Assembly (NCBI RefSeq): GCF_000019605.1
Contig: NC_010482.1
Location: 270,001 to 302,000 of the forward strand
From: Candidatus Korarchaeum cryptofilum OPF8
GTDB lineage: Archaea; Korarchaeota; Korarchaeia; Korarchaeales; Korarchaeaceae
Length of the DNA: 32,000 bases
Direction of reading: 5' to 3'
Of this stretch, positions 645-17,931 are shown piece after piece. A model generated the notes under the pieces. It saw nothing but the letters and a program-made list of their open reading frames with translations. It was not told the origin of the DNA and made no database searches. Each line of letters opens with the position of its first letter. Positions within the stretch are counted from its first letter, which is position 1. A program made the translations under genes and the position numbers.

Positions 645-3600
645 TTGCGGGTCCCGCTAATTTTATTCATCTCTCTCATCCCAATCCTCTTAATAGATGC
701 GATACCCCAGATACAACTGGATAGGGGACTCTTGAGCCCTGGGGATATCCTGAATGTTAGGATCTTCCGAGCTTGCGATGTTAAGCTCCTAGGGGAGAAT
801 TTGAGCGTACAGCTCTTCAAAGGGAGCTCAGATTACTTAGAGCTCAAGGTCAATACTTCTAGCATGAAGCCGGGCGTCTACAGGATAGTGAACTCATGCG
901 ATGGATTTGAAGCGGAAGCTAACTTCACGCTTGACGAGCTCTATATAGAAGTCCTCTCTCCGGAGCCCAACGTTATAGAAGTGGTAGCTAAGACCGAGCT
1001 TCTCGGACCGGTCAATGCCTCGATAACCGTTAACGGTGAGCCTTACAAATCTCCATTTAAAGCGGATCCAGGGGATTACTATATAGAGGCGAATTTCTCG
1101 GGCCTTAGAGCTTCCAAACATATACATCTGCCTGAGATATATATGAGGGAATACTTACTGCCTCAAGATGATGTCGAGATCACTATAAGGGGAGATGAGA
1201 AGCCCTATCTGAAGATAATAACTCCCCTGAACTCATCAATGATCCCGGATCTCGAGAGGGTCAATTCCACTCACTGGTCCTCGAGGTTCAAATTGCCTCA
1301 GTCCATAGCCCTCGGTAACTACAGCTTGATAGTGGAGATGGGCAATATAACGCTCGAGAGGGAGTTCGTGGTAACGAGTATAGTGATAGATTACTCCAAT
1401 GGGAGCCTAAGGGCTAAGGATGCCTTGAGCGGGGAGCCAATAAGGGGGAATATAACCGTGGAATCTTGCTTCTGGAACTTTACATCACAATTCAATGGGA
1501 GCATAGAGCTCGGAGGACCTGCTGAGGTGACTATAAACGATGAGAGGGGCCTCAGATACTCCTTCGAGATAGAGGGTGTATCTACAGATAGGGACGTTTA
1601 CTTCCCAGGGGATACGTTGAGGGTATGCTCATCCGGAGGGAACCTGATAATAAGGTCCCCGACCGGGAGGGTTCTGCTAGATTCCGAAGTCCCCCCGGGG
1701 ATATATGAGTACCCACTGGTCAGGGACGTTAAGATAGGTGAGTATTCGGTAGAACTGAATGGGGTCTCGAGGAACTTTTACGTGGACAACTACTCGATAG
1801 ATGCTAGCTTCACCGGTGACTATGTGGAGGGAAGGGTCAGCTATTACTCCATAGCGCCGAATTCGGTCAGCTACCTCGCTCTGCCCTCGAACTTGAGCGG
1901 AGAATCCAGAGTGATGAACGGTAGCTTCAGGATATACCTTCCCGATTCCGAGGAAGTCATATTGAAGTGCGGGAATGCTGAGATGAGGCTGAGTAAAAAC
2001 TGCTCCTCGACTTCCCTAGATGGCCTGAGGCTTGAGGCTAATGGTTCATGCGTAAAAGCCGCTAAGGTTGAGAGCGGAATATACGTCAGCGTCAGATCCC
2101 ATAGCAATTTCACGGCGATACTCAGAGTCCATGGATCCGAGGAGCTGGAGGCATTCAGTGAGGATGGGAAACAACTTCACCTGAGGACGAGATTTTCAGG
2201 TGGTGTTCAGGAATTTCTATTGGAGGATGGATCACCTAATGATCCCGATGGTACTGCAAATGGACTTTTCAATATGATACTGCGCCCAAAGAGCTCAGAA
2301 GCCAATAAGAGCATTGAGAAGGAGATGAGGAAGGAGGTTAAGCTGTATAAGGGGCCGAAGATAGTGAAAGAGATCTCAGTCAAGGGATCTGGGAAGAAAT
2401 GGAAGGTAAAATTCTACAGGGTGGAAAGTTTCGAGAATTTAACGGGGATGTTCCAGCTCAAAAACGGGCTATTCGTGAAGGAGGAGGAAGTAGGAGAAGC
2501 TGAGGAGATAAAAGTTAGGAGCATATTGATAGCAGATGGGAAGATATTGGTGGAACTGGGGGAGAAAAGCGGGTGGGTTAGGGTATCAGTTGAGCTTCCT
2601 AAGGGGGCTCTAGTGAAGGAAGTTCTGGCAGAGGATGAGAATGGGACGAGGGTGATAGATGCGTGGTACCAGAGGGGGAATGAGCTGGTATTCTACGATG
2701 ACCCGAGCAGATATTACTACATTTTATATGGGGTCCCGCCCTGGTGGGATCCAGATGGCGTAGCTCAGGGGTACGATTGGCACTACAGGGTCCCCCTGCA
2801 GCTCCCTACCCTCAGAAAGGATCACACGATATGGTTGGATGTGAACTTCAACAAACTATTATCGCTTCTCAACGTCACCGGGACCTTCGATCCCAACTCA
2901 GTCAGGGTGGTGGATGATCAGGGGAACTTAGTTCCTAAGCAGGAATTCGTGCCGCTCGGTAGCGGAATTGGAAGAGTGAAGTTCATCCTGCATAAGGATC
3001 TGGGGAGCCCCTCCACATTCTACATATACTTCGATATAACTGAGAACGGGGCAAAACCATATCTGAATACTCTGAATGCAGGCCTGGATTCGGGTACGCT
3101 CAATTACTGGACCTACGGTAAGAACCCCTCTACTATATCATCGATAATACAAGCGAGCCCTCCAGGCCCTTACACAGTTTACGACCCATACGGAACTCCA
3201 AACTACATTACAGACGATGGGAATCCAGTTTTCGGTGGCTACTCCCTCGTTCTAGGCTATAGGACACCGAGCGGGAGCGAGGATTCTACCTCTACTGGGG
3301 AGGATACTTGGGCTTATTACGAGTTCACCGTGCCAGCTGATGGAGGTAAGCTCTACTTCTGGTATAGAGTTGAGTCATGGGACTCGGTAAACTACGATTA
3401 CTTCAGGGCCGAGCTCAGGAATACTGCCGGGAGTACTCTCGCTACTATAGTGAACAATTACAATCCAAATCCAGGGAATAATTATGGGCCATTTGCAGAC
3501 TCAGGCTGGCTCTCAGCTTCATTAGATCTCTCGCCTTACGCCGGTCAGACGGTGAGAGCTTACTTCCTCGTCCACACATATAGTGATGCTCTCTATAAGA

Positions 3601-6600
3601 CTTGGGCCTATATAGATAACTTGACGTGGGCTCCCGTGAATTTAACATCCTCCCTAGTTTCCAACATGGTCGAGGGCTTCGGAGTTCATGTTATCTCACC
3701 GGAAGGAGCCCTCTCATACGGCCCTGTTAAAGTTGAGGCTAAGGTGGATGCGAAGCCCTCAAGAGTAATAGCGAGGATATACAATCCACTAGGTGCTCTA
3801 GTGGCCACAGCTCAGCTCTACGATGATGGGACGAATGGAGATGCTGTTCCTAACGATGGGATATATACTAACGCTAACGCTTACACGCTCTCGCAAGGCT
3901 CGCCATTCGGGAAGTGGAGGGTAATAGTATTAGCTAACGATTCCTCTACCTCAATCTACCCAGGCTACTCCGGGCTAATACACATACCCGGGAGGCCTCT
4001 CGAAGTCAACTACACGGACTTCTTCAATGTAGATGAAACATATTTCTACTTCAGGCCAGTTAGAGGAAAAGTTTTTGAAGATAGGGAGCCCCTGGCTACT
4101 TACGGCAGCGAGGATAGGCCTATGAGTAATGTTCTTGTATATGCACTCAAGGATAATGGAGACGGTGTCTTCAACCCGCTCGATGATACCTTATTCACAT
4201 GGGGCAAGACGGGTAGCGATGGCTCCTATACTTTCTCAATCCAAGACGGCAGATACTTCGTGGTCGTTAACTCGAAGAACCTGACAGCCGAGCTCAATTC
4301 GGGCCACTCTATAGATGAGACCTGGGCCGAGCAGACATATCAGGTCGAGTGGAATGGTAGCGCTTACGTTGGCAAAGCAAAATATGGAGGGCTGAATCCC
4401 ACAGTAAGCGACTCCTGCCTCAGCTTAGTTTTCATGGATGACTTCGAGGTCTGGCAGGGATGGGTCAATTACGGTTCAGGCAGTGTCGCTCAATCAAATG
4501 CTGAGTTCTACAATGGAAGCTACAGCCTCGTCAGGAATGCAAATAACGAGCCAAACGGTGGATACAAGCTCATAGGAACTACTATAGGGAGGGGCTACAT
4601 TCTCCAAGGCTATGCGTTCAGACCAATAGGATCAAACGGCAGGGTCAGCATTGGGCTGGTTGATGGCAATTACAATGGTTACAGCTTCATCGTCGATCAC
4701 AGTAGCAATGTAATTCAGATAGTCCGCAGGGTAAATGGGGCAATAACTGCCACAATCTCCACATTGAGCTATAATCCTCCCGAGGGAAGTTGGTACTTCT
4801 GGAAGCTCATACTCTTAACTAATAACACGATAATATTCAGGCTTTATGATACGAATGGGAACCTCCTCGCTCAAACGAGGGCAACGGACTCCACTTACAA
4901 CAGCTTCGACAGAGTGTTAGTTCAGGGGGATGCCACTTACTACATAGATACTTTAGCCCTCTGGCGTATCCCAGATAGGTGCGAGCACATAACTACGATA
5001 GATACCAGCAATTACATGGGGGAGAGCCTCGACTTCGGGTTCAGTTATGAGGTGATAGTGAACACTAGGGATGCTGATGATGATCCAGGGATTAGGACAT
5101 GCCAGGGTTGCTTGAGGCAGTTCATAATGAACTCGAATGCTGTAAAGGGGATGCAGAAGAGCTACTTCCTCATACCTAAGAGCGATCCCAATTATTTGCA
5201 GGAGAGCTTGGGCTCATCCCTTATAGACGTATGGAGGATAAAGCTCTCCTCGAATCTTCCTCAGATGACTGACGATGTCAACCTAACGGCTAAGACTCAA
5301 TCAGGAGCTTATGGATTCGTGGAAGGTAAGTACGTTGGCCTCGATAACCACAGGATCCCAGACTTCGAGACCCCCAGGATAGAGGTGGATGGCAATGGCT
5401 ACGAGGTATTCAATGCGAGCGCTAGGAGAGCTCAGATAGAGGGCTTCAGTATATACAACGCGCCTTACGCTATAATCGTCAGGGGGAGCGATAACAGATA
5501 TACGATAAGGGATAACTTCATAGGAGCATACGCGAATGGATCGAACTCTCTAAAGGTGATCTTCGGGATAAGCGTGGGCAAATACTCGACTTCAACAATC
5601 TCCAGCAATTTATCAGCTTTCATAAGGCATAATATAGCGATCTCGGGTCATTACGGAATTGTCGTTAACAGCGGGAACATAGCTAATGCCACGATAGAGG
5701 ATAACTGGGTGAGGGAGTGCGGAGCTGGCTATAGCGTCGGGGATGGGATAAGCCTCCAGACTAACGGTAATAAAGTCATCCACAATTTCATTGAGAGGAA
5801 TAGGAATGATGGGAGCACATCAAGGATAGATGGAGGAGCTGGCGTGGAGCTGGTCGTCTGGGTCCCGGAGCAGAGCTCCGGATTGAATTTAGTGCTGAAC
5901 AATACGATAGTGAATAATTCGAGGTGGGGTATCAGTGTCCTCTCGAGCTACACTAAGGCTTTAATAGAGAAGAACGTGATCTACGGGAATCAAATAGGGG
6001 TAATCGTTCAAGGAACTTCCGTAGCTAATATAACGAGGAACAGCATATTCAATAACTCGAGGGTAGGGATAGACCTCGATATATCCGGCAACCCGAATGG
6101 GGATGATGTATCACTCAACGATGGAGCTCTATCAGCGAATCAGCCGAACAAGGGGATGGATTATCCCGTCATAACATCAGCTATCCTTTACGGCAGCACC
6201 CTTCAGCTGAGTGGATATATTGGAACGGGCCCAAGCTCAACTTTCGCGAACTCCATCGTGGACATCTACTTAGTCAGGAACTCGACGAAAGGAGATAATC
6301 TGACAGGAAACGATCTCTCCTTAGGCGGGACTCTCCCAGATAAGTACGGTGAGGGCTGGATATGGCTCGGGAGGCTCTCCGCCGGTAGCGATGGGAGGTT
6401 CGAGGGAGCCTTGGCTGCCCCTCAAGTTGACTGCAGTTCCCTGATAACGGCCACAGCCACTCTGAATGGGACATCCGAGTTCGGCCCGGATTTCCACGTC
6501 ATATGCAGGAGGAACGTATCCGCTTCCATAAGAGTATCCGGGAGCTCCGCTGTCCTAAATGTAACAGCTCACGGATTGAAGCAGTACAATATCATAGCTT

Positions 6601-8285
6601 ACTGGATAAAACCGCAAAACGTGGATATAGCCTCTATGAGCGGAGATTATGATTCCTATGGTTCTAGCGGTGATGTTTACTGGTGGTCATTCGATCAGAT
6701 AGATGCAGGTGAGACGAAGCACGTCTATCTGACTCTCTCCTTCTCAGGTGATTACAACTTGATCGATGCTTTCAACGTAGGCATAGATCCCCCGGGTTTG
6801 AGCGTAGAGATGAGGGAGTTCGCATCTCTCTCATTCAATCCCGACGGTAGCTATGTAGTCAGCAGGCTCTGGGGATTCTTAACGATTAACAACTCATCCC
6901 CTGATGTTATCTCAAATTTAGCACTGGATATCGATGCCCCTGGCTACACATTCTACCTGGATTATCCCCTTCCATCCAGCACGCCTCTGAGCCCCCCGTT
7001 AACTTATCAATGGCTCCCTCCGGGGAGCTACGTGAGGTGGAGGTACGAGGGGCCCCCATCGGAGGCTAGGGTTCCGCTGAGGATACGCGGGACAGGCTTC
7101 AATTGCGGCACTACGATAGAGGTATCAGCGTTGGATGATATAGATAACGTGACGATAAGGGGTTTCGGAGATATCTGGAGAATCGGTAGCATGAAGAGAG
7201 GGGAAAGAGTCAGCAGGACCTTCAGAGTAGGTAATATCGGTTGTCGAAACTATACCTTAGCCGTTGAGTTCGCTTATCCTAGCACATCTCTCTCAGGGAA
7301 GTTGAGGGCGTTGAGAGGGGTGAGCGACGCATCCGTCGAAGTTACGAAGGAGATGAATGGAAGCTCAGTTAGGGTCAGGGCATCGTTCAGGAATGGGGCT
7401 AAGGAGCTCATCTACAACTTGACTAGGATATGCATAATGAGGTCGCAATCTGGACCCGTATTGGCTTGCGAGACGCCCAATGTAATTCTGAGGCCTGGAG
7501 AGGGATACGAATCCTCCTATTACAGCGAGACAGTTAGCGGAGTTCCCGTCTATTATTCGAACGCTAGCTTCACGATAGTGCCCAGTGTGAGTGGAGTGAT
7601 GGTCCCGCTCGAGGATATAGCCTCAAGTTATTACTTAGCCACCGCTCTCCTCTCTCAAAGGGTGTGCTGCGAGAGAGGGGCTGCGATCACGACAATCCCT
7701 ATGCCAACAACTAAGACGCTCACTACAACTCCCCGGGGGGCCGAGGTCACAGTACCGCCGACAACTGCGACTCAGCCGACTACTACGACTCAGATGACTA
7801 CTACGCAAGTTGCGACTGAAACAGTCAGGACTGAGACAACCAAAACTACACCAATCAAAACTACTACTGAGATCGGGAATATATCTCTAGGAAGCCCAGT
7901 AGTGCTCAGGACAGGGATCCCGTTCCTGATGACGCTCGGGTTCCCCTTCATCCTCGCTATCTTCCTCCTCAGGAGGAGGGAGAGTGAAGTAGTGGTCGAT
8001 TACGATATACTGAGCTCCTTATATACTAGGGGCCTCCTTCCGAGGGCTTCCAGTATGTTCAGATTCGCTATGACTGACGTAACCCTCTTGAGAGTCATGG
8101 CAGATACTGAGTTGTTCAACGCGATTCAGAGAGTACATTTCAACGTATATCCATCCTCGAGCGAGGAGATAGCTAATGCCCTCTCTCTATCTCCCGATCC
8201 GGAGATAGTAGAGAGATTCCTGGCTAGATCCCTCGCATCCAGGCTGGATACGGATCTCCTCTCGGAAATGCTCTATGGGAGGTGA
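645..8285 (+). CDS. Giant (2546 aa) multi-domain cell-surface protein, probably heavily glycosylated (adhesin or S-layer-associated type)
   Basis: Uninterrupted 7.6-kb ORF with a TTG start at 645 and GGAGGAGGAGG just upstream. Hydrophobic N-terminus RVPLILFISLIPILLIDA. About 50 N-x-S/T sequons by manual count. Cna-B/SdrD-like segment VRGKVFEDRE...GSDGSYTF (~4050-4280). Jelly-roll/LamG-like segments (~3230-3640, ~4430-4970). Parallel beta-helix repeats IRDNFI, IRHNIAIS, IEDNWV, IHNFIE, LNNTIVNN, IEKNVIYGN, ITRNSIFNN (~5440-6130). Thr-rich linker (~7690-7875), TM helix plus RRR (7915-7979), then a ~100-aa tail. Confidence 0.85.
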   Translation: MRVPLILFISLIPILLIDAIPQIQLDRGLLSPGDILNVRIFRACDVKLLGENLSVQLFKGSSDYLELKVNTSSMKPGVYRIVNSCDGFEAEANFTLDELYIEVLSPEPNVIEVVAKTELLGPVNASITVNGEPYKSPFKADPGDYYIEANFSGLRASKHIHLPEIYMREYLLPQDDVEITIRGDEKPYLKIITPLNSSMIPDLERVNSTHWSSRFKLPQSIALGNYSLIVEMGNITLEREFVVTSIVIDYSNGSLRAKDALSGEPIRGNITVESCFWNFTSQFNGSIELGGPAEVTINDERGLRYSFEIEGVSTDRDVYFPGDTLRVCSSGGNLIIRSPTGRVLLDSEVPPGIYEYPLVRDVKIGEYSVELNGVSRNFYVDNYSIDASFTGDYVEGRVSYYSIAPNSVSYLALPSNLSGESRVMNGSFRIYLPDSEEVILKCGNAEMRLSKNCSSTSLDGLRLEANGSCVKAAKVESGIYVSVRSHSNFTAILRVHGSEELEAFSEDGKQLHLRTRFSGGVQEFLLEDGSPNDPDGTANGLFNMILRPKSSEANKSIEKEMRKEVKLYKGPKIVKEISVKGSGKKWKVKFYRVESFENLTGMFQLKNGLFVKEEEVGEAEEIKVRSILIADGKILVELGEKSGWVRVSVELPKGALVKEVLAEDENGTRVIDAWYQRGNELVFYDDPSRYYYILYGVPPWWDPDGVAQGYDWHYRVPLQLPTLRKDHTIWLDVNFNKLLSLLNVTGTFDPNSVRVVDDQGNLVPKQEFVPLGSGIGRVKFILHKDLGSPSTFYIYFDITENGAKPYLNTLNAGLDSGTLNYWTYGKNPSTISSIIQASPPGPYTVYDPYGTPNYITDDGNPVFGGYSLVLGYRTPSGSEDSTSTGEDTWAYYEFTVPADGGKLYFWYRVESWDSVNYDYFRAELRNTAGSTLATIVNNYNPNPGNNYGPFADSGWLSASLDLSPYAGQTVRAYFLVHTYSDALYKTWAYIDNLTWAPVNLTSSLVSNMVEGFGVHVISPEGALSYGPVKVEAKVDAKPSRVIARIYNPLGALVATAQLYDDGTNGDAVPNDGIYTNANAYTLSQGSPFGKWRVIVLANDSSTSIYPGYSGLIHIPGRPLEVNYTDFFNVDETYFYFRPVRGKVFEDREPLATYGSEDRPMSNVLVYALKDNGDGVFNPLDDTLFTWGKTGSDGSYTFSIQDGRYFVVVNSKNLTAELNSGHSIDETWAEQTYQVEWNGSAYVGKAKYGGLNPTVSDSCLSLVFMDDFEVWQGWVNYGSGSVAQSNAEFYNGSYSLVRNANNEPNGGYKLIGTTIGRGYILQGYAFRPIGSNGRVSIGLVDGNYNGYSFIVDHSSNVIQIVRRVNGAITATISTLSYNPPEGSWYFWKLILLTNNTIIFRLYDTNGNLLAQTRATDSTYNSFDRVLVQGDATYYIDTLALWRIPDRCEHITTIDTSNYMGESLDFGFSYEVIVNTRDADDDPGIRTCQGCLRQFIMNSNAVKGMQKSYFLIPKSDPNYLQESLGSSLIDVWRIKLSSNLPQMTDDVNLTAKTQSGAYGFVEGKYVGLDNHRIPDFETPRIEVDGNGYEVFNASARRAQIEGFSIYNAPYAIIVRGSDNRYTIRDNFIGAYANGSNSLKVIFGISVGKYSTSTISSNLSAFIRHNIAISGHYGIVVNSGNIANATIEDNWVRECGAGYSVGDGISLQTNGNKVIHNFIERNRNDGSTSRIDGGAGVELVVWVPEQSSGLNLVLNNTIVNNSRWGISVLSSYTKALIEKNVIYGNQIGVIVQGTSVANITRNSIFNNSRVGIDLDISGNPNGDDVSLNDGALSANQPNKGMDYPVITSAILYGSTLQLSGYIGTGPSSTFANSIVDIYLVRNSTKGDNLTGNDLSLGGTLPDKYGEGWIWLGRLSAGSDGRFEGALAAPQVDCSSLITATATLNGTSEFGPDFHVICRRNVSASIRVSGSSAVLNVTAHGLKQYNIIAYWIKPQNVDIASMSGDYDSYGSSGDVYWWSFDQIDAGETKHVYLTLSFSGDYNLIDAFNVGIDPPGLSVEMREFASLSFNPDGSYVVSRLWGFLTINNSSPDVISNLALDIDAPGYTFYLDYPLPSSTPLSPPLTYQWLPPGSYVRWRYEGPPSEARVPLRIRGTGFNCGTTIEVSALDDIDNVTIRGFGDIWRIGSMKRGERVSRTFRVGNIGCRNYTLAVEFAYPSTSLSGKLRALRGVSDASVEVTKEMNGSSVRVRASFRNGAKELIYNLTRICIMRSQSGPVLACETPNVILRPGEGYESSYYSETVSGVPVYYSNASFTIVPSVSGVMVPLEDIASSYYLATALLSQRVCCERGAAITTIPMPTTKTLTTTPRGAEVTVPPTTATQPTTTTQMTTTQVATETVRTETTKTTPIKTTTEIGNISLGSPVVLRTGIPFLMTLGFPFILAIFLLRRRESEVVVDYDILSSLYTRGLLPRASSMFRFAMTDVTLLRVMADTELFNAIQRVHFNVYPSSSEEIANALSLSPDPEIVERFLARSLASRLDTDLLSEMLYGR

Positions 8286-13982: not shown

Positions 13983-15929
13983 ATGCTAGAGCTCCTCTCC
14001 CTGATCGAGGGATACTTGGATAAAGACGATAACAGCAGGCATAACGCAAACTTAATTTATTCCCTCCCTTCCCTAGCCGGGATCCTCTCTGGATATGTCC
14101 AGAGGGAATTCTACCTGAACAAAGTCCTTACGGAGGAACAGAGGCTCCTTCATGAGGAGGGGTGGTGGTATCATCATCAGATGGCTCAATTGAGCCCTTA
14201 CTGCGCTGGTTTCTCAGCTCTTGATATAATGAGGCACGGCCTTCAATCCAGAAACCCATTCAGCGTTAAGTCTAGGCCCCCTCGCCATCTAAGGACGTTC
14301 CTAGATCAAGCGGCTAACTTCATACTCAAGATGAGTCAAGAGGTATCGGGGGCTGTGGCCCTCAATGACCTAACTTCAGTCGCAGCCGCCTACGTCTGGT
14401 ACGAGAGGGAGATCTTGGGGAGGGAATTGAGATATGGAGACATTAAGAATGCCTTCCAATCTTTCGTTTACAATGTTAACTTGGATTTCAGGAGTGGGAA
14501 CTCCCCTTTCACGAACGTAACGATAACGATAGGTGGTCCGGCTCCAGCTCTAATGGATGAACCGGTCACGATAGGGATGAGCTTAAGCGAGCCCAAGAGA
14601 TTCTCAGATATACCCAGATCTTACTACGATGAGGTCAATAACGCCCTCATAGAGGTGATGTCCGAGGGTGATGCTGAGGGGAAGCCCTGGACCTTCCCCC
14701 TCATAACTCTCTACATAACTGAAGACTTCGATTGGGAATCCGAAGTCTTCGAGAGGCTCTTAGATTTAATGGATAGCTTCGGCGGTATATACTTCGAGAA
14801 CTACATCCCGAAGCCCTTCCTAGATGATAAGTGGAGGAGCAAGGTGGGTAACTTGGAGGTGAGGGACCCTAAGCTCCAAAGATCTTTCTGCTGCAGGTTC
14901 CAAGTGGATCTAAATGAGCTCCTTAGGGTCCCTCACACGGGTTCGATATTCGGGAACCTCTCGGGCGTCGGATCGATAGGAGTTATAACGCTGAATTTCA
15001 ACAGGCTCGCCTACTTGCACAGGGGTAACTTGAGCTCCCTGCTCGATCACCTCGATATATTGCTGGAGATGGCTAGAGATGCTCTCAACAGGAAGAGGGA
15101 CTTCATATTGAGGAATAAGCAGCTCTATCCGACCTTCTTCTACTACGTGGATGAATCCCTCAGGACCTACTTCAACACAATATCTTTGGGAGGTGGACAC
15201 GAGGGCTTAGTGAACTTCGGTGTGAAGAAGGGGATACTTTGTGAGGAGGGCTTGAGATTAGCGAAGCTAATATCTGAGCGCATACTTGAGAAGCTCAGGG
15301 AATTCCAAGAGGCAGATGGGGTCGCCTGGAACTTTGAATATGCCCCAATGGAGACGGCCGCTGGCTACCTAGCGAGGAAGGATCTTGAATTCGTTGAGAA
15401 CCTAAGGGAGGGCAGAGTTACGAGGATGTTCAGTGATATAGTGGATGCCCGGAAGGAAGCACCCGATATATATGTATCTGGATCGAGGGAGAGGCCCATC
15501 CTGACCTCAGGCTTTCAGCCTCCATTCAGCGAGGGCGATATCTCGAAGCTAGTCTATGTCTCAGCTCACACCCAGAATTACGCTACAGGTGGATCGGTCC
15601 TTCATACCTTCTTGGGGCAGAAGGTTAGCTCTGATACCAAGAAAGAGCTAGTGAGAAAAATTTTCAACAACTACCCGGTTAAGTATATGACGATAACTCC
15701 AACGCTGACTAGATGTAATAAGTGCGGTGCGAAATTCGTCGGGGAGTATTTAGAGTGCCCTAAGTGCGGGAGCGATGATACTACGATATACTCGAGGGTC
15801 GTCGGTTACTTCAGGCCGATAGCGAGGAGGGTTAAGAGGAGGGATCCCTCCAGGGGGATCTATGATGGTGAGGAGAACATATGGCAGGACTCCAGGAGAG
15901 CCGACTGGCTGACCTCCTCCCCGCCCTGA
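13983..15929 (+). CDS. nrdD: Anaerobic (class III) ribonucleoside-triphosphate reductase; the 3' end runs into the IS element
   Basis: Active-site FCCRFQ, TGGSVLHTFLG block, C-terminal Zn ribbon CNKCG...CPKCG, and glycyl-radical motif SRVVGYF. The TGA stop (15927-15929) lies in the loop of the IS terminal hairpin, so the last few codons are probably not native. Confidence 0.93.
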   Translation: MLELLSLIEGYLDKDDNSRHNANLIYSLPSLAGILSGYVQREFYLNKVLTEEQRLLHEEGWWYHHQMAQLSPYCAGFSALDIMRHGLQSRNPFSVKSRPPRHLRTFLDQAANFILKMSQEVSGAVALNDLTSVAAAYVWYEREILGRELRYGDIKNAFQSFVYNVNLDFRSGNSPFTNVTITIGGPAPALMDEPVTIGMSLSEPKRFSDIPRSYYDEVNNALIEVMSEGDAEGKPWTFPLITLYITEDFDWESEVFERLLDLMDSFGGIYFENYIPKPFLDDKWRSKVGNLEVRDPKLQRSFCCRFQVDLNELLRVPHTGSIFGNLSGVGSIGVITLNFNRLAYLHRGNLSSLLDHLDILLEMARDALNRKRDFILRNKQLYPTFFYYVDESLRTYFNTISLGGGHEGLVNFGVKKGILCEEGLRLAKLISERILEKLREFQEADGVAWNFEYAPMETAAGYLARKDLEFVENLREGRVTRMFSDIVDARKEAPDIYVSGSRERPILTSGFQPPFSEGDISKLVYVSAHTQNYATGGSVLHTFLGQKVSSDTKKELVRKIFNNYPVKYMTITPTLTRCNKCGAKFVGEYLECPKCGSDDTTIYSRVVGYFRPIARRVKRRDPSRGIYDGEENIWQDSRRADWLTSSPP

Positions 15930-16110
15930 AGGGCGAAGGGTTCCCTCAGGACGGCTCACGGGTTCGTGGTTTACCGCCTTCATCTTCATCACTTCACAGC
16001 TGGTAGGTGCGGTTCGCACCCACCCCGCTCCGCTCGTCCAGTGGTAGACCACGGGCTGGGTCTTCAGCCCGTTACCCCTATCCCTCGCCAAGAGTTGCCC
16101 CTCGCTCTTG
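15905..16110 (-). ncRNA. Predicted omega (re)RNA scaffold of the TnpB element
   Basis: Assigned by position: the 3' end of tnpB through to the RE. GC stems visible: GGTGCG-GTT-CGCACC (16006-16020), GTGG-TAGA-CCAC (16041-16052), GGGCTG-GGTCTT-CAGCCC (16053-16070), plus the RE hairpin. No covariance or expression evidence is available. Confidence 0.35.
15919..15936. repeat. RE-side subterminal hairpin repeat CCCCGCCCTGAAGGGCGA
   Basis: Identical to 17405-17422. 5-bp GC stem with a TGAA loop. Confidence 0.85.
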
Positions 16111-17224
16111 GCTCCTTGGGACTCAGGGATATGTAGGATGTTTATTGCCCCGTTTAGGTCTGCATTTATGATCTTCCCCATGCGGGGACACTTATAGAGA
16201 CCGCGTTTGACACGCCCGTTTTCATGGGCTTCCCCGCACAGGGAGCAACTTTTTGATGTATTTGGTTCTGCAACATCAATTACCCTAATTCCCAACTCCT
16301 CACCAATCTCCTTAAAACGCTTGATTACATAACCATAATTCCAAAAGTTCACTGTGAGTTTATTTCCATGATTCTTAGCGATGTCCTTTGGGTAACCCAC
16401 TACGACCTCGCTCACTCCCTTCTCCTTCAACTCTCCCATTATTTTCCTAATCATGCTGTTCAAGGCATGCTTCAGGAACCTCCTCCTCTTATCATAGAGT
16501 AGCTTAAGCCTCCTACTCGTTCTCTGCCCATGCCTAGCCAAGACCTTCTGGATCCCGCTCATCTTCTTACTGTAGCACTCGTATTGAGAGAGGACACCAC
16601 CGCCCTTGAAGATGTACCACGTGCCATCCTCAACATAGACAGTGGCTAAATTAACGATCCCCAAGTCTACGGAAGCCCTCAAGCTACCCTCAACTTTCGC
16701 CTCATCTTCAACCTCCACCGGGATGTGGGCATACCAACTTCTCCTAGCCTCATTATAAACTATCTCCAGCCTACCCTGCTTCCCGCACCACTTGAGTTCC
16801 CCTTTAAAACCCAAGGCTAGCTTGAAGTCCTTTCAAATAGATAGTCCTACCATCCTCATCCACTTCGTAGCGATCGTTCCTAATGATGATTATCAGCCTA
16901 TATTTTCCACTCCTATCCCTCCAGTAGCTCGGAGGTCTCGGCTTGAACCACTTTGGTAGCTTCCCCTCCCTCTTTTCCCCGATTAAGGAGAAGAAGCTCC
17001 TCCATGCTTCAGCGTTCTTCCTGGCAACCTGCTGTGCGTTGACCTTCAGCACGCGTTTGTACTTCTCGTATACCTCCTTTCCGGTCTTTAAGAAATCGAC
17101 CCTCTCCCCCTTCTTGAACTGTTGCATCCTCAGCCAGTTCACTTCGTTCCAACACTTCACTGTAACGATGCCCAGCTTCCTCAGCTTCTCATGTGTTTCC
17201 TTGTCCACCACCAGCTTGACTACA

Positions 17225-17368
17225 TTAGTCCTTCGCATGCCTACCCCTCTTGTACTCCTCAATGAGTCTCTTGATCACATCATCATAGGTTTCCCTAGGG
17301 TGAATCTTCAGCCTCTTCAACTCCTCCTTAGTATCCTTCCCAATCCTAATCGGCTCAGTAGCAGGCAT
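17225..17368 (-). CDS. 47-aa ribbon-helix-helix-like protein (VapB/DUF217-type pattern) inside the IS, overlapping the tnpB start
   Basis: Not in the ORF track because it is too short. Translation is MPATEPIRIGKDTKEELKRLKIHPRETYDDVIKRLIEEYKRGRHAKD. The layout is a short beta strand (IRIG) followed by two helices. The ATG at 17368 lies ~25 nt downstream of a TATA-like box. The stop overlaps the tnpB ATG by 14 nt (ATGCGAAGGACTAA). Confidence 0.55.
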   Translation of the reverse strand: MPATEPIRIGKDTKEELKRLKIHPRETYDDVIKRLIEEYKRGRHAKD

Positions 17369-17392
17369 ACCACAGAAGTAGCGAACAGTAGC

Positions 17393-17404
17393 TTAAAAAC
17401 TTTA
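17393..17404 (-). promoter_or_regulatory. TATA-like box (minus strand TAAAGTTTTTAA) for the RHH-tnpB transcript
   Basis: AT-rich box between the LE hairpin and the RHH ATG. Spacing of ~25 nt fits a leaderless transcript. Confidence 0.45.
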
Positions 17405-17422
17405 CCCCGCCCTGAAGGGCGA
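17405..17422. repeat. LE-side subterminal hairpin repeat CCCCGCCCTGAAGGGCGA
   Basis: Identical to 15919-15936 and in the same orientation. Confidence 0.85.
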
Positions 17423-17427
17423 GGCTT

Positions 17428-17931
17428 GGTCGATGTCACCACAGGGAGCTAGTTGAGGGGAAATTCGAGGAGGTCCCACTAGAAGAGCTCCTCTGGGAGC
17501 TTGAGGGGAACTCCTTGATAGATATGCTGATCATAAGCGGTGGTGAGCCTACAATACATGGAGATAGCTTGCTCGAACTGATAAAGATATTGAGGATCAG
17601 GAGAGGAGATTTGCCAATTAGAGTCGACACTAATGGATCTCTACCGAAAGTAATGAAGATCATTGCCGATTATATCGATGGATTCGCTTTAGATGTGAAA
17701 GCGCCTCCTCTCCGAAGGGAAATGTATGAGAGGATTATAAGGAGGGAATTCGATCTCGAGAGCTTCATGGAAGCAGTTGAGATAGCTTCAGGGCTTCCGT
17801 ACACTATATTCAGGACTGTGAGGTACCCCTGGCTCAGGGAGGAGGATATAGGGGAAATAAGGGAATTCCTATCGAGGTACGGGGGAGGGAAGCCCCACAT
17901 AATTAATCCTTACTTCGAGCCGGAGCATTGA
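17428..17931 (+). pseudogene. nrdG: Anaerobic RNR activating enzyme (radical SAM), 5'-truncated by the IS
   Basis: The frame is open from 17416 and reads ..GRCHHRELVEGKFEEVPLEELL...IDMLIISGGEPTIHG...VDTNG. CHHRELV looks like the third Cys of CxxxCxxCHNPEL. The first two Cys and the N-terminus are absent. An in-frame TGA sits at 17413-17415 in the LE hairpin loop. Confidence 0.8.

Follow-up and report, generated by a model that had tools for sequence, protein, structure and literature searches.

The question raised by this locus is what a very small protein does when its gene lies inside a transposable element, at the place where a transposase gene would be expected. The locus was found in a 32,000-nucleotide stretch of the genome of Candidatus Korarchaeum cryptofilum OPF8 (contig NC_010482.1, positions 270,001 to 302,000), hereafter the window, and all coordinates are counted from its first letter. 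It consists of a non-autonomous element of the IS200/IS605 group (IS1341-type, 1526 bp, 15909-17434, minus strand) in which a 47-codon open reading frame (ORF) precedes tnpB. Cas12 descends from TnpB, which is also a candidate miniature genome editor. The restraint of nuclease and guide-RNA expression in TnpB elements is only now being worked out, so far in bacteria. The 47-residue protein was assigned to the ribbon-helix-helix (RHH) type, its gene was found to be exchangeable with the transposase gene tnpA, and its role is probably that of a repressor of its own promoter.

The 47-codon gene and its protein family

The RHH-type ORF was located at 17225-17368 on the minus strand, opens with ATG and encodes 47 amino acids (MPATEPIRIGKDTKEELKRLKIHPRETYDDVIKRLIEEYKRGRHAKD). 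Its TAA stop codon (17225-17227) lies within ATGCGAAGGACTAA, which also holds the tnpB ATG (17236-17238); the two genes overlap by 14 nt (17225-17238, minus strand) and the downstream frame opens MRRTNVVK... (MRRTNVVKLVVDK...). A preliminary description of this DNA had placed a 47-residue ORF between the left-end (LE) hairpin and tnpB and had its stop overlap the tnpB start by 14 nt, and the position, the translation and the overlap were all borne out.

Dozens of ORFs of similar size are present in the ORF list of the window, so a length of 47 codons carries no weight by itself, and this abundance is what speaks for the ORF being an untranslated accident of conserved left-end DNA. Among 5.8 billion proteins searched, 47 homologues were found at 58-96% identity, some of them labelled 'predicted CopG family antitoxin' by the Joint Genome Institute (JGI). 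Their alignment has an invariant core, L-K-x-H-P-R-E-T-Y-D-D-V-I-x-R-L, and residues L17, K21, H23, T27, Y28, D30, V31 and R34 are invariant across all 47. Over 34 core codons from 24 loci, variable columns numbered 15, 9 and 34 of 34 at codon positions 1, 2 and 3, respectively, and the mean nonsynonymous difference (pN) was 0.087 against a mean synonymous difference (pS) of 0.64, which is near saturation (pN/pS ~0.14). The synonymous bias that had been proposed as a check on other copies was therefore present, and the frame, whose disruption or absence in other copies had been named as counter-evidence, was unbroken in nearly all of ~40 copies. The coding-type substitution pattern, the scores above two curated Pfam cut-offs and the 47 homologues with their invariant residues put the ORF beyond chance. 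Judged by this pattern it is a real gene under strong purifying selection, and the probability of a spurious ORF is close to nil.

The two Pfam families were PF24434 (DUF7557), with 30.4 bits against a gathering cut-off of 25, and PF02697 (VAPB_antitox, formerly DUF217), with 29.0 bits against a gathering cut-off of 27.9. DUF7557 was matched by 47/47 homologues and VAPB_antitox by 45/47, with weak matches to CopG/RHH_1 in 8/47; Pfam Arc (PF03869) was not matched at E<=1 by any of the 47 family members. A monomer model produced with AlphaFold2 (AF2) from the family alignment had an extended or coil segment at residues 1-10, a helix at 11-20, the conserved loop KIHPRET and a second helix at 28-45, with a mean predicted local distance difference test (pLDDT) score of 68. 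The strand of an RHH monomer forms only upon dimerisation, and the model fits such a monomer, as a prediction that is no proof of the fold. The assignment to the RHH fold is made mainly because of Pfam membership.

After helix 2, the alignment of the 47-residue form holds a tail of ~8 variable residues. Paralogues of 78-85 aa (L028-L047, from Methanomicrobiales and others) have the HPRETYDD core in common and, in addition, a C-terminal DEPLSxETLEHL...AGR extension. They never adjoin tnpB and are probably conventional antitoxins. Another family member of 42 aa (L130, 2010-2138) was found among small unannotated ORFs with no tnpB, possibly in a virus or plasmid; at this locus an inverted repeat with 8-bp arms, CCTCAGTA...TACTGAGG, sits in the TATA-start interval, and the recurrence of a palindrome at this position in an unrelated context agrees with autorepression (see below).

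The predicted left-end promoter and its candidate operator

A TATA-like box, TTTTTAAG (TTTATAAG in some copies), lies at 17392-17399 on the minus strand, 23 nt 5' of the ATG, in agreement with the distance of ~25 nt given earlier. Its position and sequence are conserved across the RHH-carrying loci, and general archaeal promoter geometry suggests that it functions as a promoter. At this spacing the transcript is probably leaderless or near-leaderless.

The candidate operator occupies the space between the TATA box and the start codon (17369-17392, minus strand). It contains direct repeats, GCTACT-N4-GCTACT, spaced 10 bp apart at 17377-17392, which are the sole exact match to this pattern in 32 kb against an expectation of 0.16. 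A palindrome, CTAC-TTCT-GTGG (17370-17381), overlaps the direct repeats, and a third GCTACT follows 20 bp further on in codons 3-4. The consensus of the TATA-ATG interval in window-type copies was AAG-CTACT-GTTYG-CTACT-TCT-GT(A/G)GT-ATG.

Tetramers were counted over the interval from -35 to +15, with the expectation obtained by mononucleotide shuffling. CTAC/GTAG was observed 67 times against 7.0 expected in 23 RHH-carrying loci, and 0 times against 6.2 expected in 9 loci of TnpB-only relatives. A divergent IS lineage (L022/L133) has CTAC-TAAT-GTAG between the TATA box and the RHH start, followed by GTAG 10 bp downstream, and the corresponding sequence reads CTAC-AATT-GTAA in L133, CTAC-TTTT-GTAG in L132 and CCAC-TATT-GTGG in L007. 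Since CTAC-N4-GTAG occurs in both lineages, in which synonymous sites are saturated, the repeats travel with the RHH gene. A covariation of PI to SV in the beta-strand with CTAC to CCAC in the half-site (L007, L020) was suggestive and was contradicted by PIR proteins that are accompanied by GTGG. In the TnpA-carrying and TnpB-only siblings the TATA box is closely followed by another palindrome, AATACTTTAAAGTATT; it was seen in L051, L055, L058, L072, L073, L084 and L113, ~20-45 nt past the LE hairpin, and may be the binding site of another regulator.

The interval between TATA box and start site is the classic site for an archaeal repressor. As the repeats occur only in RHH elements and at this position, and as bacterial Arc proteins provide a precedent (see below), autorepression is the best reading of the locus. 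Judged by sequence layout and analogy, the 47-residue protein is probably a negative autoregulator acting on the left-end promoter of the RHH-tnpB operon. Transcription would begin at the TATA box in the left end and give a leaderless transcript, starting from or next to the RHH ATG and running into tnpB. The phased CTAC repeats and the CTAC-N4-GTAG palindrome in the 23-nt interval would serve as binding sites for RHH dimers, and the bound protein would occlude the recruitment of the pre-initiation complex or of RNA polymerase. Such a loop would keep RHH and TnpB low, together with any omega-RNA made from the same transcript, and sibling copies would be controlled in trans as well, because the operator is common to all copies. 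We infer DNA binding, operator identity, repression and translational coupling. Control of tnpB expression had been among the roles suggested in the preliminary description, and the layout of the TATA box and the RHH-linked repeats makes it the best-supported mechanism.

Several points weigh against autorepression. The promoter and the start site are predictions from sequence only, the enrichment of the repeats rests on ~2 independent IS lineages, the loci that carry them being related, and the downstream half-site varies (GTAG, GTGG, GTTG, GTAA) while the protein is unchanged. Confidence in the AF2 monomer is only moderate (pLDDT 68) and the model has no strand, Foldseek found no match for it in the PDB, and sequence searches of the PDB, run with the family profile and a 78-aa paralogue, returned noise only. 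The resemblance to VapB/DUF217-type RHH proteins noted earlier holds for the family, with PF02697 and DUF7557 above their cut-offs, and was not confirmed for the fold by AF2 and Foldseek. The Pfam name VAPB_antitox and the study of Altae-Tran et al. 2023 (PMC10691335) both point to an antitoxin role.

Element ends, mobility and exchange of the first gene

The limits of the element were taken from its copies. Homology begins and ends exactly at 17434 and 15909, with 89% identity to L003/L004 and 98% to L005, and the flanks are unrelated. The left end is directly preceded by the target-adjacent motif (TAM) 5'-TGAC-3' (17435-17438, minus strand), and TGAC was found before the left end in most surveyed RHH-carrying copies, with all upstream flanks different. 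The LE subterminal hairpin, GCCTCGCCC-TTCA-GGGCGGGGT (17404-17425, minus strand), is kept in all window-type copies. The right end (15909-15940, minus strand), defined by repeat and homology limit, terminates in ...GGAGGTCAG and has a hairpin that repeats the LE core, an identical repeat of 18 nt being present at 15919-15936 in the right end and at 17405-17422 in the LE hairpin. The element contains only the RHH gene and tnpB, and the ORF list has no tnpA within 15909-17434. With hairpins at both ends, insertion 3' of the TAM, TnpB domain matches and no tnpA, it is an IS1341-type element.

An exact-match search of metagenomes for the empty insertion site gave 0 matches, so the boundaries rest on the comparison of copies, and tblastn searches of plasmid and phage collections returned no match. 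The window copy and the 98%-identical L005 occupy different sites, and one Archaeoglobales metagenome-assembled genome (MAG) holds three copies, each with different flanks. Insertion at many TGAC sites with differing flanks identifies these elements as insertion sequences (IS) and not as fixed two-gene modules.

A genome scan recovered short-form (44-47 aa) homologues in MAGs of Desulfurococcaceae (98% identical), Archaeoglobales, Caldivirga, Vulcanisaeta, Acidilobus, Methanomethylicota, Methanodesulfokora, Nitrososphaeria and Jordarchaeia. In ~30 loci from thermophilic archaea the RHH stop is overlapped by the tnpB start (M/V-x-R-T/A-N). Where the downstream sequence is long enough, overlap was found in every RHH locus with a recognisable tnpB start; it spans 4-50 nt, most commonly 14 and otherwise 4, 23-50 or 25-28; the exceptions are L016 (a truncated element), L020, L027 and L130.

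A scan of metagenomes that started from TnpB returned 80 relatives, and classifiable loci with tnpB 65-83% identical to that of the window were split by their first gene. The first gene was RHH in 14 loci, a Y1 HUH transposase gene (tnpA) whose stop overlaps the tnpB start in 8, and none, with a short non-coding leader in its place, in 11. The RHH gene was absent from all ~45 relatives at 36-46% TnpB identity in the same metagenome scan. The autonomous, TnpA-carrying siblings (L052-L058, L064, L072) resemble the window element in the LE hairpin, in the TGAC TAM (as in L055, L056 and L058), in a tnpB that is 75-80% identical and in the overlap of the first-gene stop with the tnpB start; they differ in that the first gene encodes a Y1 HUH transposase of ~135 aa and in the palindrome near the promoter. 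In the window element the tnpA cassette is replaced by predicted promoter, candidate operator and RHH gene. The remark that the ORF sits where TnpA would be expected therefore proved correct, the siblings having a Y1 tnpA in the identical slot.

By these sequence comparisons the RHH gene is an optional cassette that, inside a single IS lineage, directly takes the place of tnpA. The RHH, TnpA and empty architectures were interleaved in a rough neighbour-joining tree of tnpB DNA without support values, a pattern suggestive of cassettes having been exchanged repeatedly. A second RHH-carrying IS lineage (L007, L022-L026, L133) has a TTAC TAM and a different hairpin; its TnpB is 37% identical to that of the window and its RHH protein ~73%. 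Derivation of the RHH tail from the 3' end of tnpA (IEEYKRCRHEKD against IEEQWGKEGEKN) was considered; the ungapped nucleotide identity is only 0.5-0.6, over a purine-rich stretch.

The same exchange could be read as a sign that the RHH protein is an accessory or an inhibitor of transposition, which would bind end DNA and modulate excision or integration by a TnpA acting in trans, or insulate the element, with control of transcription secondary. The TAM and LE hairpin shared with TnpA siblings mean that RHH elements could be mobilised in trans. The exact replacement of tnpA, the dependence on a TnpA in trans, the siblings with the same TAM and LE hairpin, and the distance of the repeats from that hairpin (<=35 nt) all agree with such a role, as does the terminator-like combination of hairpin and T-run. 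Transposition of IS200/IS605 elements, however, proceeds via hairpin ends in single-stranded form, and the DNA read by RHH proteins, through a beta-sheet in the major groove, is double-stranded. The repeats, moreover, lie exactly within the TATA-start interval. At the right end no copy of them was matched by pattern; the exact GCTACT-N4-GCTACT occurs at the left end only, and the only other match to CYAC-N4-GTRG in the element falls within tnpB coding sequence. A primary role in transposition was accordingly regarded as quite unlikely. The LE hairpin (17404-17425) scores as intrinsic-terminator-like together with a TTTTT run at 17395-17399 (minus strand), and the two could insulate the element promoter from read-through out of the host gene.

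Autorepression in cis need not be the whole function. The RHH protein may constitute an 'immunity' module that takes the place of tnpA and silences siblings with a CTAC operator in trans, or it may gate the TnpB nuclease directly; a role of this wider kind was considered doubtful. The RHH identity of 73% against 37% for TnpB, the presence of RHH beside decayed tnpB and the interleaved tree are compatible with a role beyond the local tnpB. An immunity module, if real, would set copy number or dormancy across a whole family of archaeal transposons with an RNA-guided nuclease, and direct gating of TnpB, if real, would make the pair a toxin-antitoxin (TA)-like system with an RNA-guided toxin. The RHH gene was kept beside a decayed tnpB in ~45% of loci. 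As a sign of independent selection this retention was not significant, the RHH gene being a nine-fold smaller mutational target.

The tnpB gene and related systems

The tnpB gene (15909-17238, minus strand) matches the OrfB_IS605 and Cas12f1-like TNB domains of Pfam and the NCBIfam model guided_TnpB (150 bits). The window copy is broken by one additional A in the A-run at 16831-16833 (TTGAAAGGAC here, TTGAAGGAC in L003-L005), so that its frame falls into two ORFs, 16804-17262 and 15750-16814. The break marks either a pseudogene or a homopolymer sequencing error; a programmed frameshift was rejected, the extra A being absent from the 98%-identical L005 and from L003/L004. In all of the nine aligned TnpBs the RuvC-I Asp and the RuvC-III Asp (NADLN or HRDAV) are kept (9/9) and the RuvC-II Glu is replaced by Gly (VVVGYPKD, window ~16390-16400; 9/9). 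The Gly is clade-wide and is shared by RHH-carrying, TnpA-carrying and solo TnpBs alike. In a profile alignment to structure 8j1j it pairs with the E of an IQMEDL stretch, which we take to be the RuvC-II catalytic Glu. A zinc-finger-type CxxC...C(xxC) region is present in window-type TnpBs.

The tnpB frame has no stop inside the element and remains open through the presumed omega-RNA region and the right-end hairpin into the flank, and the ORF length varies from 432 to 586 aa between copies (window 15750-16120; L003, L011, L050-L068). The 3' part of tnpB overlaps the presumed omega-RNA region, and an Rfam scan of the whole window matched no family and hence no curated omega-RNA model. Protein-level conservation of the segment P-V-V-Y-x-W-T-x-G-A-G-W extends even to the 37%-identical lineage.

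A DNA-binding passenger had been described as foreign to the canonical account of IS605, a statement that is out of date (10.1101/2023.11.20.567912, 10.64898/2026.09.24.754181, PMC10691335). RHH ('Arc-like') ORFs in IS605, IS607 and IStron elements were reported in 2023-24 (Zedaveinyte et al. 2024, 10.1101/2023.11.20.567912), and bacterial IS605 Arc-type RHH proteins bind the promoter of their element and repress tnpB (Moon et al., September 2026, 10.64898/2026.09.24.754181). Elements with 'arc + tnpB only' are covered by the latter study, which also notes that such microproteins escape annotation (10.64898/2026.09.24.754181). The likeness to these bacterial repressors lies in a very small RHH protein (some <=50 aa) beside tnpB in an IS605-family element, in repeat motifs over the promoter of the element itself, in genes that are often unannotated, and in an RHH gene inside the element boundaries (17225-17368 within 15909-17434, and in ~30 further loci). 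The host here is an archaeon with a predicted TATA-type, leaderless promoter, whereas bacteria have -35/-10 promoters. The RHH gene here is co-directional with tnpB and overlaps it, whereas bacterial arc is mostly divergent. The protein belongs to DUF7557/VAPB_antitox with no Pfam Arc match at E<=1, the Arc clade having been compared through Pfam only. Repression has been demonstrated for the bacterial proteins and is predicted here; by analogy the 47-residue protein may work like an Arc.

Archaeal tnpB genes downstream of RHH or MazE genes were described in 2023 and proposed to form TA pairs (Altae-Tran et al., PMC10691335). The RHH protein of the window would then be an antitoxin to a TnpB toxin, binding TnpB and blocking its engagement with guide RNA or target DNA. 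The published group resembles the window locus in several ways: its tnpB genes, from thermophilic cren- and euryarchaea, encode a rearranged catalytic site and directly follow a small RHH gene, their long 3' region leaves room for a guide RNA, and their distribution is patchy (PMC10691335). It was treated as non-mobile and as a TA pair, and was linked to RIIIr-4, with RuvC-III Asp changed to His and no C4 zinc finger. Here the change is RuvC-II Glu to Gly, with the RuvC-III Asp and the Cys motifs kept, and the pair lies inside mobile elements bounded by TAM, left end and right end, at many sites and in three copies in one MAG. The RuvC-II Gly TnpBs match, in a comparison by description, the RuvC-II-rearranged clades of PMC10691335 such as RIIr-5.

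A TA pair would be in keeping with the top Pfam and NCBIfam matches, which are VapB-type antitoxins, with an overlapping two-gene operon that resembles type II TA loci, with the patchy distribution and with the published AF2 co-fold of an archaeal RHH protein with its TnpB (PMC10691335). VapB antitoxins (PF02697) and DUF7557 proteins (PF24434) are like the 47-residue protein in family score, size class and strand-helix-helix pattern. The partner here, in contrast, is a TnpB RuvC nuclease inside an IS and not a PIN-domain VapC, and there is no C-terminal toxin-binding extension. The tail is ~8 residues only, the antitoxin-type extension being confined to the 78-85-aa paralogues outside TnpB contexts. 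Intact TnpBs of the same RuvC-II-Gly clade exist without RHH in 6/8 TnpA-carrying and 4/11 TnpB-only loci. Elements bounded by IS ends at many TGAC sites behave as insertion sequences and not as a fixed module, and TnpBs of the window type, which have a RuvC-II change and keep a zinc-finger region, are not the finger-less RIIIr-4 with RuvC-III Asp to His. On balance a TA pair appears unlikely here.

The locus is an archaeal, sequence-distinct example of an RHH arrangement already known from IS605 elements, and the current picture of IS605-family transposons is unchanged by it. Set against the three texts (10.1101/2023.11.20.567912, 10.64898/2026.09.24.754181, PMC10691335), the details that appear new are the RHH cassette as an alternative to tnpA, the promoter with CTAC/GTAG repeats, and mobile elements whose TnpBs carry the RuvC-II Glu-to-Gly change. 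A literature search by the names DUF7557 and PF02697 gave no match.

With ~40 relatives the locus forms a compact archaeal counterpart of the bacterial systems, made up of a putative 47-residue regulator, a predicted promoter/operator of ~30 bp and a probably leaderless operon. Siblings with tnpA or nothing in the RHH slot mean that natural controls exist. The locus offers a testable thermostable repressor/operator pair and a check on the published toxin-antitoxin reading of archaeal RHH-TnpB pairs, and it exemplifies how cassettes at the 5' end of IS605-family elements are swapped as modules.

Removal of 15909-17434 in silico restores a radical-SAM-type ORF of 174 aa (15881-15908 joined to 17435-17931), which shows that the IS interrupted a host gene. 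The 3' end of nrdD (13983-15929), which encodes an anaerobic ribonucleotide reductase, overlaps the restored ORF, and the last residues of NrdD are changed by the IS from VTTGS to LTSSPP. By position the restored ORF is NrdG-like, yet it lacks the CxxxCxxC cluster motif, which is odd for an activase. Elsewhere in the window, a very long ORF of 2546 aa (645-8285, plus strand) opens with TTG. At another locus (L001, 4001-5977) an RHH gene leads into a tnpB that breaks off after 52 codons; next come a second LE hairpin (~4602-4622) and another tnpB, which is 40% identical and has no RHH gene; this arrangement appears to be one element inserted into another.

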